DNA of 20,178 nucleotides from Promethearchaeia archaeon (lineage in GTDB: Archaea > Asgardarchaeota > Lokiarchaeia > Sigyniarchaeales > SOKP01), in NCBI GenBank assembly GCA_046483985.1, contig JAWOCD010000045.1, forward strand, positions 1 through 20,178, written 5' to 3'. Positions 2,232-19,346 of this stretch are shown here, in pieces; position 1 is the stretch's first letter, and each line of letters opens with the position of its first letter. The translations under genes were made by a program, and so were the position numbers. Below the pieces are notes generated by a model that saw only the letters and a list, made by a program, of their open reading frames with translations, did not search any database and was not told the DNA's origin.

Positions 2232-3128
2232 ATGGCAACCATATTAAAACGCACCGTTAATGGAAATGAGTATCATTATATGTCATACTCTTATCGAAAA
2301 AACGATAAAGTATTAAAAAAGGAAAAGTATTTGGGTGCAGAAATCCCTCCCTTTGAAGAACTTACTCAGCTTTGGGAAGCATTTTCCTATGAGATCGCGG
2401 AAGAAAGATGGCTTCAAGAAGTAGACGCTATAAAGGAAACATATTGTGAGATCTTAGATTCCACTCCCTTGTCAATCATCAAAAAGAATCTGAAAAATTT
2501 TGGAATTCACTTCACTCACAACACGAATAAAATAGAAGGCTCATCGCTAAATTTACGAGATGTTGAGAGGGTGCTCAAGGATGATAAATTACCTAAAAAT
2601 AGAAAACCCAATGATATTATCGAAACAAAAGCGCACATGAAAATCTATGAAGAAATGTTGGATACGGATAATCCGTTATCGATGGGTATGATCTGTAACT
2701 GGCATAAAAATTTGTTTCAATTAACCGATTCCAACATTGCGGGACTTATAAGAGATTACCCCGTTGGTATTAGTGGAAGTGATTATGAACCGCCTTACTC
2801 CAAAATTGAGATTGAACAATTATTAAAGGATCTCTTTGAATGGTATGAAAAGAATAAAGATACTTACAATCCTGTTTTCATAGCTGCCATTATGCATTAT
2901 CGATTTATAGCTATTCACCCCTTTGGCGACGGGAACGGAAGAATGACGCGCTTGATGACCAATTATATTTTATATAAGAATGAGTATCCGATGTTTGATA
3001 TTAGCGCTGATATACGGTATAAATATTACAAAGCTCTAGCAAAGACCGATAAGAAGGAACACGATCTTCCTTTTGTACTCTGGTTTTTCAAATCCTATAT
3101 AGAATCTAATAAGAAATATCTACGATAA
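2232..3128 (+). CDS. Fic-domain AMP transferase (class II, autoinhibited) with an extra N-terminal domain
   Basis: Canonical HPFGDGNGRMTR motif; inhibitory (S/T)xxxE(G/N) motif TNKIEG upstream of it; N-terminal beta-rich segment EYHYMSYSYRKNDKVLKKEKYLG. Confidence 0.93.
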   Translation: MATILKRTVNGNEYHYMSYSYRKNDKVLKKEKYLGAEIPPFEELTQLWEAFSYEIAEERWLQEVDAIKETYCEILDSTPLSIIKKNLKNFGIHFTHNTNKIEGSSLNLRDVERVLKDDKLPKNRKPNDIIETKAHMKIYEEMLDTDNPLSMGMICNWHKNLFQLTDSNIAGLIRDYPVGISGSDYEPPYSKIEIEQLLKDLFEWYEKNKDTYNPVFIAAIMHYRFIAIHPFGDGNGRMTRLMTNYILYKNEYPMFDISADIRYKYYKALAKTDKKEHDLPFVLWFFKSYIESNKKYLR

Positions 3129-3359
3129 GGAAAATAGATTAGAAGAGATTACCAAAGAAATCTAAAACTTGTTTTACGTAGGATTCCATGGTAATCAAGA
3201 TGCTTTCTTCCACAACTAACATTACCGCACAAAATATAATCCAGAACACCACATACAATTTCCATACTCTTTTAATCTGTTTCTCGTTTAGATCCAGATT
3301 TTTAACCAGTATTTGGATTTCTTCATTTTCCGATATTCAATTAATTTTCGCTCAGACAA

Positions 3360-5339
3360 TTAATAATACTTTCGTAACATTTTGTCTATTTTCTGCTCAT
3401 TAATTTGAAAGAGCGCGAAAAAGAGCTGATCGATTAATTTCTTTAAGGAGGAAAGAGAAAAATCCTCTTTTCTCTTAGAAAAATTAGGAATTATAATATT
3501 CTGATTTTCTAGTTTCCCGAGATTTTCCATTATCATATTAATTTTCCTATTGAAATCGGGGATTTTTTGTGTCTTTTGACCCTTCTTGTTGGTTATGGCG
3601 ATTATCAATCTTGAAATGCTTCGAATGGCTCGCAAAATTGTTAATTTTCGCGGATTGTTAATCGATTTCATATCTTTCTTTAAAATAAAGGAAGGGATAG
3701 GGAGGTTGGTTTCCAACTTGGTTTTACTCCGCTTAATTTTAATATTTTTAGCCTTGAAAATGAATCGTACTATCTTGGAATTAAGGTATGCTAGTAGTAT
3801 ATAGTAGTCAATATCCAATTGAGGCGATTTTTTCCAAATAAAGTATGTATCAGACGTCGCGTAATATGGGGCAGTTGAAAATCCAAATTCATTTGAGGTT
3901 AAAATATATTTAAAGAAGATTTTAGGTTCACTTTCATAAGAAGATTCAAGATTGAGCAATCTTGACTCTGAATTTTTATGTTTGCGCCGAATAAAAGCGC
4001 CTCTTCGCGGAAAATAGAGATCATTCGGATTTTCTTTTGCATTCAGCAAGGTCTGCTTCAGTTTCGCCTCATATTGCATCAAATAGTGGTAAATTGTGGG
4101 GTATGATTTTTTGATATGAGCATCGATTTGCGTGCTTGTGAGCCCTTCGAACTCGTCTTTATTAAAATAAATAGCAAATTTTCGAGTATCGGGGGATGTA
4201 TGTCCGTAGGGTATAATCTCTTTACTTTTATATATGGGTTTTATCCGTTGACTTTCCTTTTCCGTTAATTTCTCGGTTGATTCTCCAATTTGAATCAAAT
4301 ACTTATCGTCCTTAATTCGGATATTCTCATTTTCTGTTAACACAAAAATCTTATCGCTAATAAAGATTAAGCCGTTTCTGATGATGAAAAAATCTTTGAG
4401 ATATCTCACACGGCCCTTGTAGCTACAATAACTCTCGAGTTGTTGTATAATTTTTTTGACTTGAGTTGGATATAGAAGGTTCCAGCTTTTCTCCGGTTTT
4501 AAATCCCTATTCGTTGTAGCGGAGAGATAACGCAATATACGGGGATCCTTTTTACGATTTATAAGTGATTGAAAAACATTTTCGGTGGAATTACCTCGTT
4601 TGCGTTTAATTGAAACGATTTTTATTGATCTATCTCTGCGGAAAAGGGAATCCTCAACAGTTTTCTTTTTTAAAAGAAAAATACAATTATGTTGACCTTG
4701 AGCTTTCGGAAATATCTTTACATTCGACAGGTCAATATATTGAAGTAGATAACAGTTCTTGAGAATATGCGGTTTGAGAAATTTAATGCCGGTCTTCTTC
4801 GATTTAGTAATCCAATAATTCGTGGTGATAAAGGAAAGTAAGCCCCCGGGATTTAGTTTTTTTATACCCAAATGGATAAAATAATAAAAAATATCCATAT
4901 TGCCTGCAAAATATTTTTCACAAATCGGATACTGGTTCACATATTCTTGAAAAATTTCCGCATTATAGTTCTGCCCTAAATATGGGGGATTTCCAATGAT
5001 GATATCATACTTTTTATCGAGAGGAGCCCCTAAAAAGTTTTTAAATCTAAAATGAACGTCAGGATACTTGCGGCTGAGTTCTTCCCGTAGTCGGGAGTCT
5101 AATTCATAAGCGTTAATATGCTGAAAACCATAATCGTGCAAATATTTTAAAAATATGCCCTCCCCAGCGGCGGGTTCTAAAATCTGCAAATCTGAGCTTT
5201 GTTCTGGTAAGGGAGAATTTACTTTTTCCCTTTCATAAAAAGCAAGAACGTTTTTTACCATGAAATGAGCAACATAAGCTGGAGTAAAAATTTGTCCAAT
5301 CGAGCCTTGATGGCATTTATATTGCTCGTCTGAATTCAT
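3360..5339 (-). CDS. N6-adenine DNA methyltransferase, gamma class (TaqI/Eco57I-like), with a C-terminal specificity region
   Basis: GQIFTP, motif I ILEPAAGEGIF, motif IV IIGNPPY, DIFYYFI and LNPGGLLSFIT; C-terminal YILLAYLNSKIVRF is typical of TaqI-like TRD regions. Confidence 0.92.
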   Translation of the reverse strand: MNSDEQYKCHQGSIGQIFTPAYVAHFMVKNVLAFYEREKVNSPLPEQSSDLQILEPAAGEGIFLKYLHDYGFQHINAYELDSRLREELSRKYPDVHFRFKNFLGAPLDKKYDIIIGNPPYLGQNYNAEIFQEYVNQYPICEKYFAGNMDIFYYFIHLGIKKLNPGGLLSFITTNYWITKSKKTGIKFLKPHILKNCYLLQYIDLSNVKIFPKAQGQHNCIFLLKKKTVEDSLFRRDRSIKIVSIKRKRGNSTENVFQSLINRKKDPRILRYLSATTNRDLKPEKSWNLLYPTQVKKIIQQLESYCSYKGRVRYLKDFFIIRNGLIFISDKIFVLTENENIRIKDDKYLIQIGESTEKLTEKESQRIKPIYKSKEIIPYGHTSPDTRKFAIYFNKDEFEGLTSTQIDAHIKKSYPTIYHYLMQYEAKLKQTLLNAKENPNDLYFPRRGAFIRRKHKNSESRLLNLESSYESEPKIFFKYILTSNEFGFSTAPYYATSDTYFIWKKSPQLDIDYYILLAYLNSKIVRFIFKAKNIKIKRSKTKLETNLPIPSFILKKDMKSINNPRKLTILRAIRSISRLIIAITNKKGQKTQKIPDFNRKINMIMENLGKLENQNIIIPNFSKRKEDFSLSSLKKLIDQLFFALFQINEQKIDKMLRKYY

Positions 5340-5529
5340 TAAGAGGAAATAATACGTTTGAGGTTAAATAATTTTATGATCATCCGTTGCTACCAAATTC
5401 GGGAATTTTATAAATTTAAGGCATGGATTTATAACTTTATTTTTGGGTCTTTCGGTTTTTTATAAATGATTGCTTGCGTTTTCCAATTTAATTTTAGATG
5501 AGATGTACACGAAGGTAAGAGATAAATAA

Positions 5530-6252
5530 ATGTTTCCCAAAACCCATCGTAAGTTAGAAAATAACCTAGAGAAAACCAGTATTACCTTTTTGAAGGAGAA
5601 TCTTGAGTTAGTACTGGATAAGGAAAAATGCGTTGGCTGCGGAACATGCAGTCGAGCATGTCCTAAAGAAGCAATAGTTAAGAAGACCTTGGAGGAGCCG
5701 GTTCGCGTAAATCAAAAACAGATCATCCGGAAAATCAAGCATTTCCTTATTCCTAACGTCCATGATCCCGAAAGATGTGTATACTGCGGGGTGTGTATGT
5801 ATTTATGTCCCTTTGACGCTTTAACTCTTAAGATTAACGGTGAAGTAATAAAGCCCGAAAATCTTCCGTTAGTGGAGCAACAAGCACTGCCGAAGCTTGA
5901 AATTGAAGAAGGAGAGTTGGATTCGGGGTAAAAGGTCAATAAGTTTGCAAGCGGTTCGGTAACGATTAACGTGGAGGAGTGCGCCGGCGGTTGCTCAAAT
6001 TGCGCGGATCTTTGCCCCAGTGGGGCGATAACGGTAGCGGATGAGAAATTCCAACTGGAAAACAAGTGGGAGTCCCACATTGTCTTAGAATTGCGTGAAG
6101 ATAAATGCGTTTTTTGCGTTGCATGCCATAACGCCTGTCCCACGGGTGCCCTCAAGTTAGATATTGAGGAGATTCATTATTCCGGAGAATACAACAGCCC
6201 GTTCTGGGAGGATATCGTGCATAGACTCAAACTCAATGAAAGAAAAGAATAA
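5530..6252 (+). pseudogene. Polyferredoxin / multi-[4Fe-4S] protein (FwdF-like), one gene split by an in-frame TAA at 5929-5931
   Basis: Track ORFs 5530-5931 and 5971-6252 share one frame: ...ELDSG*KVNKFASGSVTINVEECAGGCSNCADLCP... Four cluster motifs: CVGCGTCSRACP, CVYCGVCMYLCP, CAGGCSNCADLCP, CVFCVACHNACP. Confidence 0.85.
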
Positions 6253-6255
6253 CCA

Positions 6256-6270
6256 TTTTCTTTTTTCTTT
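6256..6270 (+). terminator. T-rich tract after the polyferredoxin stop; candidate archaeal terminator
   Basis: TTTTCTTTTTTCTTT begins a few bases after the TAA at 6250-6252. Confidence 0.35.
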
Positions 6271-6796
6271 ACCTATTTTAAAAAAGTGAGAATATCCCTT
6301 TTGGATCTATTATTTCTCTAATCACTAATAAGGCACTTTTAGGCAATCCAATAGCCGAATATGGGATTTGCAATACACACAACCCGGAGATTCTGATTTA
6401 ACACCAGGAATTGAATAACTCGAAGACCTAGCGCATTCAACGGACCATTATAGCACTTGCTAATTCTTTTTCATAGTACGGTAAGGGAAAATCAAATCCT
6501 TCCCTTTTCCAAAACTCCATTTTTATTCCCTCCTTTGAAGGAGGAAAACTCCTCTCCTGGTGCGGCACCTTGATTGCTATGTCTCCCCTTTCATCATCGT
6601 TATATAAATTTAGATGGTTCCAATTTAAAAAATTAACGAGGATTGACAAGCTTAAAAAATTGTTTAAGCAAGAGTTATATCGATATTAGTCACTAATTAT
6701 CTTTTAGACAAATTATATGGAGCATTGAAATAAGAATTTAAGTGAAGATATTTATAATAAAATTATAGATTTATCTATCGTTTCAATTCAAGTTTT

Positions 6797-7321
6797 ATGA
6801 CGAATACCAATTTATCAAGAGCTAAAAAGTGGTTAAATTCCGCAATTAGTGATATAAATAGAGTTTTGAACGATCTTGAAAGGGGAGACTATGCGGATAT
6901 AGCTTTTCGAAGTCAATTTGCCGTCGAAAAAATAAATAAGTCAATATTTAATATATTTGGAATTAAAATCGAAAAGGTGCATAATCCCTCAACAATCTTG
7001 GATGATTTTTTAAAAAATGTGGAAAATTTGGAAATCGATGACAAAATAAGATCAATATTGGAGGAATTAACAGCAGATTCAAAAGTGTTTGAGAATGAGG
7101 GAACCAAGACCAGATATGGAACGATCGAAAGAGGGGAGTTAATTACTGCTGAAGAAATCTATAATTCTTTTGAAGATATAAAGTATCTATTAAAAAAACT
7201 TGATAAAATAATAATTAATTTGGTTAGATTTCTCAAATATTCTATTAAGAAGGACAAAAAAGAACTAGAGATAATTAATGAATTAAATGAATTGAGGATT
7301 TTGATTGCAAAATGGATATAG
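6797..7321 (+). CDS. HEPN-domain protein (toxin partner of a HEPN-MNT pair)
   Basis: AKKWLNSAISD, AFRSQFAVEKINKS (HEPN QQAxEKxLKA-like helix), KVHN and KTRYG; overlaps the downstream nucleotidyltransferase. Confidence 0.85.
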   Translation: MTNTNLSRAKKWLNSAISDINRVLNDLERGDYADIAFRSQFAVEKINKSIFNIFGIKIEKVHNPSTILDDFLKNVENLEIDDKIRSILEELTADSKVFENEGTKTRYGTIERGELITAEEIYNSFEDIKYLLKKLDKIIINLVRFLKYSIKKDKKELEIINELNELRILIAKWI

Positions 7322-7800
7322 ATTTAAATTTCATTAAAAACGAGTATTTTTTAAATAAACTTAAGAATTATCTTGAAAGATTATTCCGTATTGATAAAGA
7401 AATAAAGGGAATTATTTTATTTGGCTCTCTCGCGAGAAATGAAGAAATTTACTCAAGAAAAAAGATAAGTGATATTGATATTATCGTCATCTTCCAAGAT
7501 GGAGAAATTCCAATTTCACATAGCAAGCGAAGTTATTTAAAAATCAAGTTAATGGGTAACGCATTATCAAATATCGATTCAATCTGGATGACTAAGAAAC
7601 AGTTTACAAAAGGCATAGATAACAAAATGAGTATATTATTATCTGCATTATACGAAGGAAAAATTCTATTTGACCCTGAGAGTTTAATTAAGGAGGAAAA
7701 GAAAAGACTATTTAGAAGTTTAGAAGAAAAAGGAGTAAAAAAGAGAAAAAATTATTGGATATGGCCTATTAAGCACTTAGGAGAGGAAATTGAGTGGTAA
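7312..7800 (+). CDS. Minimal nucleotidyltransferase (MNT, Pol-beta superfamily) antitoxin
   Basis: IILFGSLARN...SDIDIIVIF (GS plus DxD), third Asp in NIDSIW, EGKILFDP; 10-bp overlap with the HEPN gene. Confidence 0.9.
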   Translation: MDIDLNFIKNEYFLNKLKNYLERLFRIDKEIKGIILFGSLARNEEIYSRKKISDIDIIVIFQDGEIPISHSKRSYLKIKLMGNALSNIDSIWMTKKQFTKGIDNKMSILLSALYEGKILFDPESLIKEEKKRLFRSLEEKGVKKRKNYWIWPIKHLGEEIEW

Positions 7801-11915: not shown

Positions 11916-12040
11916 GTCAATTACCACGCCCTAAAGGGCGTGGCTTGTGGTTCAACTCATCTTCAATTCCCTAACGGGCTTCGGAGTCATCGTTGTCCAC
12001 ATCTAAGGGGCTAATTGACACATAGCCCGTGTCCGTCGGA
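11916..12040 (-). ncRNA. Predicted TnpB omegaRNA (reRNA) scaffold
   Basis: Overlaps the tnpB 3' end and the right end. Complementary pairs: 11916-11923 with 12012-12019 (8 bp), 11974-11980 with 12024-12030 (7 bp), and the terminal hairpin 11924-11931 with 11936-11943. The 5' boundary is approximate. Confidence 0.65.
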
Positions 12041-12305
12041 TATACCGAGGGACAACTGCCCGATCTCTGATGTTCATCGAACCGGCTCGATCATCGTTGG
12101 TTTGGTACCCGCACTTTCTGCATTTAAATCGGTGTAATTTTCTATTTCTGTTATTCTTGTCTTTATGTCCGCATTCGGGACAAATTTGGCTGGTATATTT
12201 CGGGTCTACATACACGACGGGGATTCCTTTTTCTATTGCCTTATATTCGATGAACTTCTGGAGTTGGTAATAGCTCCAATTACTCAACATTCTGTTGAAC
12301 ATCTG
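12003..12305 (-). pseudogene. tnpB: tnpB C-terminal fragment (zinc ribbon plus RuvC-III), 5' truncated
   Basis: WSYYQLQKFIEYKAIEKGIPVVYVDPKYTSQICPECG...FKCRKCGYQTNDDRAGSMNI; RuvC-I, RuvC-II and the N-terminal lobe are missing. Confidence 0.92.
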
Positions 12306-12413
12306 ACCCAAAATGAAGATGAAGAAAAAATCAACAATCCTGATAAAGTTATCGGGAAGTTTGGAGTGGGATTAAAAGATGCGTTTGCTACATTTTATCG
12401 TAATAATGTAAAT
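12297..12413 (+). pseudogene. Internal fragment of a GHKL (HATPase_c-like) ATP-binding protein
   Basis: EHLTQNEDEEKINNPDKVIGKFGVGLKDAFATFYRNNVN; IGKFGVGLK is the GHKL G2-box. The segment has no start or end of its own. Confidence 0.7.
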
Positions 12414-13640
12414 ACTTTCTTTTGTTATGAGTTCATAAAGAATTGCTTGTTTATCGGGTTTCGGGCGCAATAATCTCCCTAATCGTTGGACATATTCCCG
12501 CGAACTTCCAGTTCCGCTCACGATAATTCCAATGTTAACTTCTGGTACATCAATCCCTTCATCGAGTACCCGAGATGAAACAATAGCCGTATATTCTCCT
12601 TTCCGAAATTGCTTTAGAATCTTCTCTCTTTCTCCAGCACCAGTTTTGTGGGTTATACAAGGAATAAAAAAGGTTCGAGAAATTTCATAGACCATTGAAT
12701 TATACTTTGTAAATATTATTATCCGGTCCTCGGGTCTTCGTTTTAGAATTTTTCGTAAAAATGCTAGCTTGTTCTTGGAATTGAACGCAATTTTCTCCGC
12801 CTTTTTATGGGCGAGTATTGCCGCTCTTGCCGCCGGATCTCTTCCAGAGCGCATTACAATTTTCTGAAAATCACTTGCGCTATTCATTCGTATGTTCCTG
12901 GAGATCAAATAATTTCTAAAGATTTTTCGGTTTTTTTCATATGCTTTCTTTTCGCCAGGAGTAAATTCGATTGAAATTTTTTCCACTCTATATTCTGCTA
13001 AGTATTTACCCGCCAAGTCATCGATTTCAGCTCTATAAATAACATCTCCCACAATTTCCGGTAAAACCGTATGTAATCCATCTTCTCTTTCATAAGTGGC
13101 AGTTAAACCTAATCGGAAGGGGATTGCAAAAATCTCCGCAATATGCCGGTATCCCTCAGATGCTAAATGATGAATCTCATCGAAGATAACTAATTTAAAT
13201 TTATTTCCCATGTGTTCAGCGTTAAGATACGCAGAATCATATGTTGTCACGGTAATTCCTTTTAGGTCTTTTGAATTGCCGGTAAACTCCCCTACTTTAA
13301 TATCAAAAGCCTCCTTTATCTCACTCTTCCATTGAGACACAAGATCTAACGTGGGAACGATAATTAACGTTGCGGAATTAATTTGTTCGGCAATTTTTAA
13401 CCCAAGTATTGTTTTTCCCGATCCAGTTGGCATGATCACTATTCCCCGTTTTTGTTTATTCCATGTGTTTAAGGCTTCTTTCTGATAAGGCCGAAGAGTT
13501 ATTTCTGAATGAAGACTTGCCGGACTTGGTACGAGATTCAAAACGCTATCTTGATATCGCTTTCCGGAATTTTCAAGATAATCGATTATTCTCTTGTAGT
13601 TTACACCCTCTGCAACCCATTTTTGTATTCTTTTTCGTCT
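12372..13640 (-). pseudogene. Archaeal XPB/Rad25-like SF2 helicase, apparently clipped at both termini
   Basis: LRPYQ, MPTGSGKT, DEIHH, GLTATYEREDG, VLDEGIDVP, QRLGRLLR. Homology-like sequence continues upstream of the TTG at 13541 (KRIQKWVAEGVNYKRIIDYLENSGKRYQDSVLNL) to a TAA at 13641-13643 with no start codon. After LYELITKE the frame runs into the antisense of the GHKL fragment. The core is intact, so expression from the TTG is possible. Confidence 0.75.
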
Positions 13641-16963: not shown

Positions 16964-17047
16964 ATATAGAGATGGGTGTTTAAATTACTAAAATCCCTCT
17001 ATTAATGAATTAATAACCTCAAATAAGTGCGTCACACTAACTATTAA

Positions 17048-17122
17048 GTTGGACAAACTTGGACAGCTTGTCCGCGCCCGTCGATAGTGGAAACGGGTTC
17101 CAATGCATAAACATAAATACCG
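17048..17122 (-). ncRNA. Putative compact omegaRNA-like / right-end structured sequence of the large TnpB-like gene
   Basis: GC-rich structured stretch just after the stop: CCCGT/ACGGG stem (17077-81 with 17093-97), GGACA(A)/(T)TGTCC stem (17061-65 or 17051-56 with 17068-73), and TTGGA/TCCAA long-range pair (17049-53 with 17099-103). Sequence returns to AT-rich below about 17048. Confidence 0.45.
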
Positions 17123-19192
17123 CTAAGGTGCGGCGGAATGGTGAGCTGCTTTCAAGAGCTGTGCGCTTACGCGGGCGACGTTTGCATGCCGATTTACATA
17201 CTCCCCGCACACCTTACATCTCTTTATATTATAATCGCGGGTAGGTGCAAGCGTGCGGGCCCGCGTCTTTTGTGCGGAAAAGCACTCCCCGCAAATCCCG
17301 CTGGTGTAGGGGGATACGGGTTCGGTAGATTCATAACGGGGTAAAAATCCCTGAGATTTGAGATCCTCCGCCCATTCGGTAAAATCTTCATATAAGGATA
17401 ATCTTTTCGGCATATAGGTAATCCCGGTTGCCAAAGCGCCCCGTGGTCCTCGGGGAGAGATTCCTTGAGAGGCGTCCCACGCAAGGAAATGCGCTTTTGT
17501 CCGATATGCCGCATATAAATACACCATTAAACTCGCCCGTTTTGCTTCTTTCATTAAATTCTCGCGTTTTCGGTGTAGTAAGGTTAATTGCCGTTCAATA
17601 CGCTCCCGCCCGCCGGAAAAATCGTTATTTCCCGATAATTTGCGCTGAAGTCGGGGGATTTCTACGTTCCGCAAATGCTCTAACTTTTTGTATGCCCTCT
17701 GAAATTGCTCCATTAATGAAGAATCGGTCGCCAAGTTAAGGGAAGCTTCGGGAGTCCCGACCGCCACCAAATAGGTGCCGATTCTGTTAAAATCAGAGCC
17801 CAAATAGGTGCTTTTCGGAAGGTTCGCGGGACCGTACAGCCGCTCCCAGGCCTTCAAGAACTTCCCGCTATGGGCAAATGGTTCCCGGGTAGCAGAGGAG
17901 AGAACTAAATCTACGGTGATCTTTCCGGAGGGTCCCCATGGAACGTTGAAACGAATGGATTTTAAGGCGGCTCCGCGCTGTAAACAGTGAACCACTTTAT
18001 CACTGGGAAGAAGGCGGAACCAGAATAATCCCTTCCGACGCACGCTTTTCCGGCTCCCGGCGACTAATTCGGAAAATTGTGCCGCTTGGTCTGGAGAATA
18101 GATCGGAATGCCCACCCAGATGGGGTTATTTTGTTTCAAGAGGGCGGTAGCTTTTTCATTATTCAGAAATTCTTTTCGGGAAGGGTGGGCTTTTCTGGGG
18201 ATCACGTATTTGGGAGAGAGTAATGTGGCGGGCAGATGTGCTTTCTTACGGTGCGGGGAAGTAAACGGACGCGTAAGGCAATGTTGAGGGAGGAATACGC
18301 TCTTAAAATGAACAGACGCAGTCGGGCGAACCATTGCGAATGTGAGCGATGCCACCCCTCTCAGTGCCGTAAACAACCGTGTAACCCCCGCACGTTGTAC
18401 CGCCGGAACCCTCCGAAATAATTTTACCGCCCCCTCGGTAAAACGATTACCCACTAAAAAGCGGGAAAACAGCGGACGAAATTCGGGTACTTGAAAACAT
18501 GTTTCAAGTAATTTAATCTTGTTTGAAAAAGTCTTGCATCGTTTATAGATAGGGGACCCCGGAGTTAAGTCCTTCATGGTCTCCTCCACGTCTTGCTGTA
18601 ACTCGCGGGCAGCCTCTAATAAAAGGGAAATGGGAAGATCAAAGGCTCGGGTTTTGATGAGATGCGCTAATTTCCGGGGAAAGGACGGAATCCGGGTCTT
18701 TAATGCTTTATAAGCGGAAAGTTTCTTTCCGGAGAAAAATGAGGAAAAATCAATATCGGAAAACAAATGCAACACGTGATTATTTTGCAAGGTGGAAATG
18801 ACTTTGATTTCCTCCTCCGTGTGCGCATATTGTTTGCAAAAATCGGCCAATCGAGAAAAAAGAGCGGTCAGCGGTTCAATACGAAACTTAAAGGGAAGTA
18901 AGGGATCCAGTTTCCGACGCCACCCTACCAACAGATTTCGTACCCACGAAGGTTCGACTCGCCATGCTTTTCCCAAGTATCGCTTTAAGTGATTGGGAAC
19001 GGAATAATAAGCCAAAAAAACGGGTATTTCTTCGGAAAAATCGGCGGTTTGCCCTTGTTCCGGAAATAATAACCGCCGTACTAAGGAGAATTTGGTTTGC
19101 AGCTCGCGATGAGCATCCATTGCCGCCGAGATATGGGAAAAAGCAATCTGATCCATGTTCCCGTATCTTTCCACGAAATTCGCCACCGCCAT
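17123..19192 (-). CDS. Large TnpB/Cas12-superfamily RuvC plus zinc-ribbon protein with atypical catalytic residues
   Basis: RuvC-I TYLGSDFNRIGTYLVAVG (D467); bridge-helix-like long helices (ERIERQLTLLHRKRENLMKE); RuvC-II position FLAWDA (D573); VSPYTSGICGEC...CKVCG (C634/C637/C659/C662); RuvC-III position VNRHANVARV (H669). The frame stays open 62 codons upstream of the ATG, so the true start may be further 5'. Confidence 0.8.
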   Translation of the reverse strand: MAVANFVERYGNMDQIAFSHISAAMDAHRELQTKFSLVRRLLFPEQGQTADFSEEIPVFLAYYSVPNHLKRYLGKAWRVEPSWVRNLLVGWRRKLDPLLPFKFRIEPLTALFSRLADFCKQYAHTEEEIKVISTLQNNHVLHLFSDIDFSSFFSGKKLSAYKALKTRIPSFPRKLAHLIKTRAFDLPISLLLEAARELQQDVEETMKDLTPGSPIYKRCKTFSNKIKLLETCFQVPEFRPLFSRFLVGNRFTEGAVKLFRRVPAVQRAGVTRLFTALRGVASLTFAMVRPTASVHFKSVFLPQHCLTRPFTSPHRKKAHLPATLLSPKYVIPRKAHPSRKEFLNNEKATALLKQNNPIWVGIPIYSPDQAAQFSELVAGSRKSVRRKGLFWFRLLPSDKVVHCLQRGAALKSIRFNVPWGPSGKITVDLVLSSATREPFAHSGKFLKAWERLYGPANLPKSTYLGSDFNRIGTYLVAVGTPEASLNLATDSSLMEQFQRAYKKLEHLRNVEIPRLQRKLSGNNDFSGGRERIERQLTLLHRKRENLMKEAKRASLMVYLYAAYRTKAHFLAWDASQGISPRGPRGALATGITYMPKRLSLYEDFTEWAEDLKSQGFLPRYESTEPVSPYTSGICGECFSAQKTRARTLAPTRDYNIKRCKVCGEYVNRHANVARVSAQLLKAAHHSAAP

Positions 19193-19346
19193 CTCGGGAT
19201 ATGCCTCCAGAGACCGCCGTGAAATTTCTTTCCCTTGTTGTTGGTATTCAATAATCTCGACAAAAACCCATAATTTGAAATTTAAAATAAGGAAAAAAAA
19301 GGATAATATATTAATTATTTCGTTGGGTTTTTCACTTACAGTTATA

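Follow-up and report, generated by a model that had tools for sequence, protein, structure and literature searches.

Can a gene for an oversized TnpB/Cas12-like protein that sits by itself on an archaeal contig be a complete RNA-guided effector, or has it been left behind by a transposon? The question was put to us by a 20,178-nucleotide (nt) stretch of a Promethearchaeia genome (contig JAWOCD010000045.1, called the window from here on), in which an open reading frame (ORF) of 689 codons ends in the motifs of a RuvC nuclease. The original prediction saw in it an enlarged, stand-alone protein with an unusual catalytic triad, Asp-Asp-His (D-D-H) in place of Asp-Glu-Asp (D-E-D). Our answer is that the window probably carries a 5'-truncated relic, no longer functional, of an IS607-type transposon of the Asgard archaea. 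The odd triad is a property of the family to which the gene belongs; the decay of this one copy is ordinary.

A gene that has lost its beginning

The gene and what is left of it upstream of its apparent start are as follows.

17123-19192, minus strand: truncated giant TnpB-like gene, an open frame of 689 codons (ORF list and translation)
19193-19244, minus strand: in-frame remnant of the gene, 52 nt, homologous to residues ~412-432 of the full-length relative P0002
19244/19245: truncation junction, with AT-rich unrelated DNA beyond it

P0002 is encoded at locus L003 of another Promethearchaeia genome, and it is the comparison with this locus that exposes the truncation. Window positions 16996-19244 are 94% identical to L003 1515-3763. 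Homology then ends abruptly at 19244, 52 nt upstream of the ATG and within open frame, while the gene in L003, which a 1-nt deletion divides into 774 and 338 aa, extends about 1.24 kb further in the 5' direction. The ATG at 19192, a fortuitous start, corresponds to a Met in the interior of the family's proteins. An intact gene would have roughly 1,100 codons; the window protein represents its C-terminal ~62%, and about 37% at the 5' end (~411 codons) has been lost, where the original prediction had supposed the effector to be intact. The missing 411 N-terminal residues are found nowhere else in the organism's own 97%-complete genome, and the motif that marks the left end of related elements was not found upstream of 19244 in the window. 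The L003-type copy, with its 1-nt deletion, also turns up on contigs of hypersaline lake and mat metagenomes, and these go on past 19244 as GC-rich gene sequence. By sequence comparison, then, the window gene is a beheaded copy and not a complete stand-alone effector.

The original prediction had noticed that the gene is richer in GC than its flanks, and it was right: the element has 48.2% GC against 35.2% for the genome, within the top 0.16% of the genome's 2.25-kb windows, and the AT-rich DNA upstream of 19244 is host-like in composition, with small ORFs. Among loci L003-L009 and L041-L047, the element lies 5-18 GC points above its flanks in all 10 examined, in hosts that range from 25% to 46% GC. 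The window was also correctly said to lack tnpA, cas genes and a CRISPR array. An IS607 TnpA was sought in it by tblastn and not found, scans gave no CRISPR-like array, and its larger ORFs include no cas gene; Rfam and tRNA scans of the window were without a match.

The fold of what remains and of what is gone

Searches of Pfam, NCBIfam and PADLOC with the window protein produced sub-threshold matches only (OrfB_IS605 at E 0.018, guided_TnpB at E 0.55), and phmmer against the PDB sequences returned nothing useful. Its relationships emerged from structure prediction. A model made with AlphaFold2 (AF2) from 20 homologues reached a predicted local distance difference test (pLDDT) score of 77. Foldseek matched this model with probability 1.0 to Cas12f, ISDra2 TnpB (8h1j), ISFba1 TnpB and Fanzor2, and VIA-align gave Z scores of 11-12 with about 250 residues aligned, spanning ~321-689. 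The RuvC fold expected by the original prediction is therefore there, with its inserted C-terminal zinc-ribbon (TNB) domain, and so is the order of parts read from the translation: RuvC-I, a long helical hairpin, RuvC-II, zinc ribbon, RuvC-III. The ~460 aa in front of RuvC-I had been noted as a segment that could not be assigned; the segment stands, and it can now be divided into helical REC and WED domains. From the extent of the VIA-align match, the AF2 model and the other structure matches comes the following layout, in residues of the window protein.

1-~320: remainder of the helical REC lobe
~321-455: WED domain
459-689: RuvC domain with C4 zinc ribbon

Full-length relatives reveal the rest. 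P0006 (898 aa) was modelled with a pLDDT of 86.9 and a predicted template modelling score of 0.73; a strand at residues 16-23 is followed by an all-helical lobe (28-503), a WED domain (530-630) and the RuvC/zinc ribbon region (660-898). Every one of its 40 Foldseek matches at E<1e-3 is a TnpB, a Cas12 or a Fanzor. The homologues begin with 'LRTYKxGLxxPESL', the first WED strand of TnpB, which is absent from the window protein, and the full-length ones have 190-900 N-terminal residues more than it does. In P0021, which is among the closest full-length relatives, the N-terminal extension (residues 1-320) had no match in Pfam, and its Atlas scores of at most 0.81 lie below the usable level.

It is very unlikely that the 689-aa protein is nevertheless a complete, stand-alone effector, RNA-guided and domesticated by its host. 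All 689 codons are open, the window has neither tnpA nor a CRISPR array, and a conserved module at the right end of the element, to which we shall come, is intact; this much agrees with the idea. Against it, translation would begin at a Met that is internal in the family, with homology extending 52 nt further upstream before it breaks, and the copy is short of parts that every full-length relative has, namely the first WED strand and some 180-410 aa of the REC lobe. Nor has the locus been kept: the gene is not at the same place in 40 relatives, which have scattered fragment matches instead, and the closest copy elsewhere, that of L003, lies in a different gene neighbourhood.

An Asp-Asp-His triad fixed in an Asgard family

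Relatives of the protein were represented by 89 cluster representatives at 50% identity, aligned by hmmalign, and all three catalytic positions could be aligned in 84 of them. The alignments bear out the putative active-site residues first proposed, D467, D573 (the RuvC-II Glu position) and H669 (the RuvC-III Asp position). Close members of the family read D / (A/S)WD / NRH, and in relatives further away (350-1,200 aa) the pattern is D / xxE / N[RT]H. Since xxE of the distant relatives aligns with (A/S)WD, D573 stands in the canonical RuvC-II Glu column, and the His is common to a much wider clade. No conserved acidic residue other than D573 lies near it in the alignment of the 89. A profile search against PDB sequences made a marginal match to Cas12f with a usable alignment of RuvC-III, in which NRH of the window protein stands above NAD of AsCas12f, and this places H669 at the RuvC-III Asp position. 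The two CxxC pairs of the C4 zinc ribbon (C634/C637 and C659/C662) are conserved as well.

The triad is D-D-H in 45 of the 89 aligned representatives and D-E-H in 30. In a maximum-likelihood tree of the aligned region, the D-D-H proteins form one clade of 45 representatives beside the D-E-H proteins, and those D-E-H proteins with an N[RT]HxNAA motif are the nearest sequence relatives of the family. Two members of the D-D-H clade read D-D-D. Because it is conserved in 45 representatives, D-D-H is, as the alignment indicates, a fixed family trait and not the product of decay in a D-E-D gene. The original prediction of an enlarged archaeal lineage of TnpB/Cas12-like RuvC proteins has also held up: family members are 860-1,583 aa long, and their homologues all come from Asgard archaea (Promethearchaeia, Thor-, Hod-, Heimdall-, Borr- and Sif-archaeia). 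The ratio of nonsynonymous to synonymous substitution (dN/dS) between the window and L003 copies is 0.17-0.25, from which it follows that both descended from elements under selection.

The organism has a second, divergent gene of the family, at C105:658-3288 (locus L037). It encodes 877 aa, is open to the contig end and is preceded by a 150-aa ORF; the protein has a 'YRTYK' start, a long Lys/Glu-rich insertion and a WVRxxxxGWRxKLD motif.

Does such a site still cut DNA? Two of the three canonical residues have been altered, and the whole D-D-H family might be nuclease-dead, an RNA-guided DNA binder or regulator in the manner of TldR or Cas12k. We regard this as improbable. The three positions are almost invariant over 45 clusters, which would not be expected of a dead site. 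Nuclease-dead TnpBs of the TldR kind have a degenerate or truncated RuvC site and a fixed linkage to a host gene, whereas here the site is conserved, neighbourhoods vary by locus and the genes lie in mobile, multi-copy elements with TnpA. Asp-Asp-His is, moreover, the classical catalytic triad of the Argonaute PIWI domain. That domain also has an RNase H fold and belongs to an unrelated lineage of it, so the likeness is one of site chemistry only. Near-invariance of three residues in a mobile multi-copy element appears to favour an active nuclease over a regulator.

The implied novelty of the RuvC-III His did not survive a reading of the literature. Altae-Tran et al. (2023, PMC10691335) reported replacement of the RuvC-III Asp by His in several TnpB branches (RIIIr-4/MazE-TnpB, archaeal RIIIr-6 and Ser-6), and took conserved rearrangements of the site to mean retained activity, which also speaks against a dead family. 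Compared by description, those branches and our family have the RuvC-III His and an archaeal distribution in common; the family differs in having Asp for the RuvC-II Glu and in its size of 860-1,583 aa. RIIIr-4 is said to be without the C4 zinc finger (PMC10691335). The family keeps the full C4 zinc finger despite its His, and the better fit to RIIIr-4 is with D-E-H relatives in which the first Cys pair is degenerate. From its nearest D-E-H relatives the D-D-H clade is set apart by the RuvC-II Asp, the retained C4 zinc finger and a size two to four times larger. In the literature we searched, PMC10691335 was the sole relevant find, and no paper dealt with a giant D-D-H Asgard TnpB clade or with a link to Fanzor.

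The transposon around the full-length genes

The relatives of the window gene do not stand alone, as the gene itself had been thought to do; they lie in IS607-type elements with TnpA, a left end and a right end. The left end is marked by CTGTTGT(A/G)ACTAGTT...AAACTTGGACAT, a motif that precedes the gene by 134-169 nt in L003 and L045 and by 791 nt in L006/7, where TnpA lies in between. Its core is the reverse complement of ATGTCCAAGTTT in the right end, and the right end has two direct TGTCCAA repeats. The ends of L003 form an imperfect subterminal inverted repeat that scores 39; shuffles, made on the L045 ends, reached no more than 30.

A TnpA of IS607 type, with a MerR-like helix-turn-helix (HTH) and a serine recombinase domain, lies upstream of the gene in L006-8, L041, L042, L046 and L026. 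Only L041 and L026 have it intact; in the others it is decayed or cut by the contig end. In L025, TnpA adjoins the right end with no TnpB-like gene; L003, L045, L004, L005 and L009 are without TnpA. The TnpA gene at L006:7287-7892 has a single in-frame TGA between its HTH and recombinase domains, and the genes of L041 and L026 are uninterrupted. A serine-recombinase TnpA together with defined ends is thus found in the relatives and not in the window itself.

IS607-family ends have an imperfect subterminal inverted repeat and short direct repeats (PMC6188088); the repeats of our family match this description, although its termini are not GG. The family resembles the IS607-family TnpB/OMEGA systems (obligate mobile element-guided activity), represented by ISFba1 TnpB with its right-end RNA (reRNA; 8iaz) and ISDra2 TnpB with its omegaRNA (8h1j), in the order WED-REC-WED-RuvC-zinc ribbon, in the MerR-HTH/serine-recombinase TnpA upstream and in a structured, conserved right end followed by a flank specific to each copy. 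It differs in the size of its proteins, which are larger by a factor of 2-4 and have about 480 aa in the REC lobe against about 100, in its D-D-H triad where IS607-family TnpB has D-E-D, and in a sequence similarity to the TnpB models of Pfam and NCBIfam that falls below threshold.

Small Cas12 proteins of the type V CRISPR-Cas systems (Cas12f and others) are the best structural matches, and full-length family members are Cas12-like in size. However, neither a CRISPR array nor cas genes accompany the family in the window and 14 related loci, 137 kb in total. The gene tables of the related loci list no cas Pfam families, and no Cas1 either (compare the Cas1H-Asgard groups of PMC10691335), no dedicated search for Cas1 having been made. 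Unlike that of Cas12, the guide of the family would presumably be read from the transposon flank.

A candidate guide-RNA scaffold at the right end

The window copy keeps its right end, which has these parts.

17102-17122, minus strand: spacer from stop codon to module, conserved with the L003 copy and the solo copy on C91
17034-17101, minus strand: conserved right-end module, 68 nt, candidate 3' part of an omegaRNA scaffold
17092-17097 with 17077-17082, minus strand: hairpin 1 of the module
17068-17073 with 17051-17056, minus strand: hairpin 2 of the module
17083-17089 with 17035-17041, minus strand: pseudoknot between the hairpin 1 loop and the last bases of the module
17014-17033, minus strand: first 20 nt outside the element, a putative guide position deduced from the boundary at 17034

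The module follows every family gene that has a 3' flank (12/12), 29-118 nt past the stop; in other family members the equivalent of the spacer is still coding (tail ...PFPLSTG). It terminates in ...TT(T/A)ATAG(T/A)TAG(A/T/C)GT, and beyond this lies unrelated sequence, different in every copy. Several metagenome contigs share only the last 30 nt of the module and diverge at 17033/17034, which fixes the boundary of the element at 17034.

We tested the proposed pairings, two hairpins and the pseudoknot between the hairpin 1 loop and the last 7 nt, on an alignment of 16 distinct versions of the module (A2). Paired cells made up 96.6%, and 7 of the 19 pairs had changed on both sides in a compensatory way. 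None of 500 shuffles reached the observed values, and slid controls paired at 35-44%. The right end of the window element thus has a structured, conserved non-coding region. Since the DNA on which serine recombinases act is double-stranded, this covariation points to a constraint at the level of RNA. Solved TnpB complexes have pseudoknotted omegaRNAs, and by this analogy the module may be the 3' part of a guide-RNA scaffold.

Solo ends and shortened derivatives

Searched with a covariance model of the module, the organism's own genome yields two copies, that of the window and one at C91:4179-4246. Of 121 genomes of the class, 22 contain the module by this search, with up to 18 copies per genome (18 in G023, 10 in G022, 7 in G003). 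In the 40 relatives, protein matches are mostly short C-terminal fragments beside modules. The copies of G022 have 62-149 nt upstream of the end in common; in one of them a left-end-like segment runs straight into the module, and in another TnpA persists without a TnpB gene. These short copies look like internal-deletion derivatives. We dropped the idea that they were truncated at the 5' end as in retrotransposition, for left-end-like segments or TnpA beside the right end fit internal deletions of a DNA transposon.

The 18 modules of G023 are identical, and most lie about 60 nt from contig ends (for example C50:15920-15997, C496:42-119 and C496:2581-2658). No family protein was detected in this genome, which suggests a high-copy, TnpB-less derivative that breaks the assembly.

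Solo left ends occur in the window's own genome on contigs C80 and C107, beside ordinary host genes. A 965-aa ORF after the C80 left end was considered as a family member and proved to be an S15 peptidase. The same genome has seven copies of a repeat, ...TCTAGACAAACTTGGACAT(T/A)ATTTAAAT..., that contain the left-end core AAACTTGGACAT (C59:62946, C64:16779, C71:10820, C114:14676, C117:3774, C53:2742 and C101:20874). A MerR-HTH remnant follows the C71 copy, and the seven are probably left ends of a related IS607-type element.

The solo module on C91 (4153-4246, locus L011) is 90% identical to that of the window and scores 87.5 bits with the covariance model. It marks the exact point where two dissimilar stretches meet. 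The one is DNA of 57% GC that carries genes of bacterial type (Tgt, an acyl-ACP thioesterase and an ABC_ATPase broken off within a domain), a piece absent from the 40 relatives; the other is archaeal DNA, rich in AT, that contains a TopoVI-B-like ORF. Either the contig is chimeric or foreign DNA was captured at the end of an element.

A relic or a faulty assembly?

Several points weigh against our reading of the window as a truncated, probably dead IS607-type element. There is no stop and no frameshift across the remaining 2,067 nt of the frame, so the truncation is recent or a shortened protein could still be made. The 3' region with its module, folded as a single sequence, gives a z score of -1.35 against shuffles, which is not significant. 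We found no assay of a D-D-H or D-E-H TnpB in the literature searched. The junction lies 934 nt from the contig end of a metagenome-assembled genome, and the exact locus of the window was not found in public runs: no RNA run is listed as containing the sequence, and the DNA runs carry an L003-like copy, not the window locus.

The nearness of the contig end brings up the possibility that the truncation is an artefact, the organism having a full-length element and the contig a mis-join at 19244. Multi-copy elements often break or mis-join metagenome assemblies, and the many right-end copies of G023 close to contig ends are a case in point. We nonetheless think this unlikely. The break falls within unique coding sequence and not at a repeat boundary, the missing 5' part is on no contig of the genome, and the upstream DNA looks like that of the host. 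The solo left and right ends in the same genome are an independent sign that this family of elements is decaying there.

Neighbours in the window

The window has a second trace of a TnpB gene.

12003-12311, minus strand: 102-aa ORF with a Cas12f1-like TNB domain (PF07282, E 6.6e-25)

This is the C-terminal remnant of a TnpB of the canonical type. It lies directly downstream of a helicase whose match to the PbeA models is confined to their C-terminal half. Positions 2232-7800 and 12372-13541 have the look of a defence or variable island, with genes for a Fic/SoFic-like protein, an Eco57I/type IIG-like methyltransferase, a HEPN and nucleotidyltransferase pair and the PbeA-like helicase.

What the element may do and what it means

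An intact element consists of the left end, TnpA in autonomous copies, the giant TnpB-like gene and the 68-nt module at the right end. Its protein comprises the first WED strand, a helical REC lobe of ~480 aa, WED, and RuvC with a C4 zinc ribbon and the Asp-Asp-His site. If characterised TnpB/OMEGA systems are a guide, a transcript over the 3' end of the gene and the module would serve as guide-RNA scaffold, the guide itself would be read from the flank directly past the element, and cleavage of emptied donor sites by the protein would let the element be copied back. The window copy has lost its left end, any tnpA and the opening ~411 codons to a deletion, which left an open frame from an internal Met and an intact right-end module.

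A bolder proposal goes further, and we rate it as a long shot. The D-D-H clade would be an active, Cas12-sized, CRISPR-independent RNA-guided nuclease with an Argonaute-like site and a compact pseudoknotted scaffold, and solo modules, such as that on C91 or the up to 18 in one genome, would provide additional guides in trans for an intact paralogue such as the C105 gene. Were it true, the archaea closest to eukaryotes would have a dispersed multi-guide system without an array.

For the window, the outcome is deflationary: the supposed oversized stand-alone effector is, very probably, a broken copy of a transposon. The family is the more rewarding subject. In this monophyletic clade, confined to Asgard archaea, TnpB has reached the size of Cas12 without CRISPR, two of the three catalytic-site residues have changed and become fixed, and a short candidate for a guide scaffold has good covariation support. 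Its solo ends and TnpB-less derivatives indicate that TnpB is often lost while the ends persist. The full-length genes, together with the 68-nt module, offer a route to asking whether RuvC sites of the His type cut DNA, and how expansion of the REC lobe arises independently of CRISPR.

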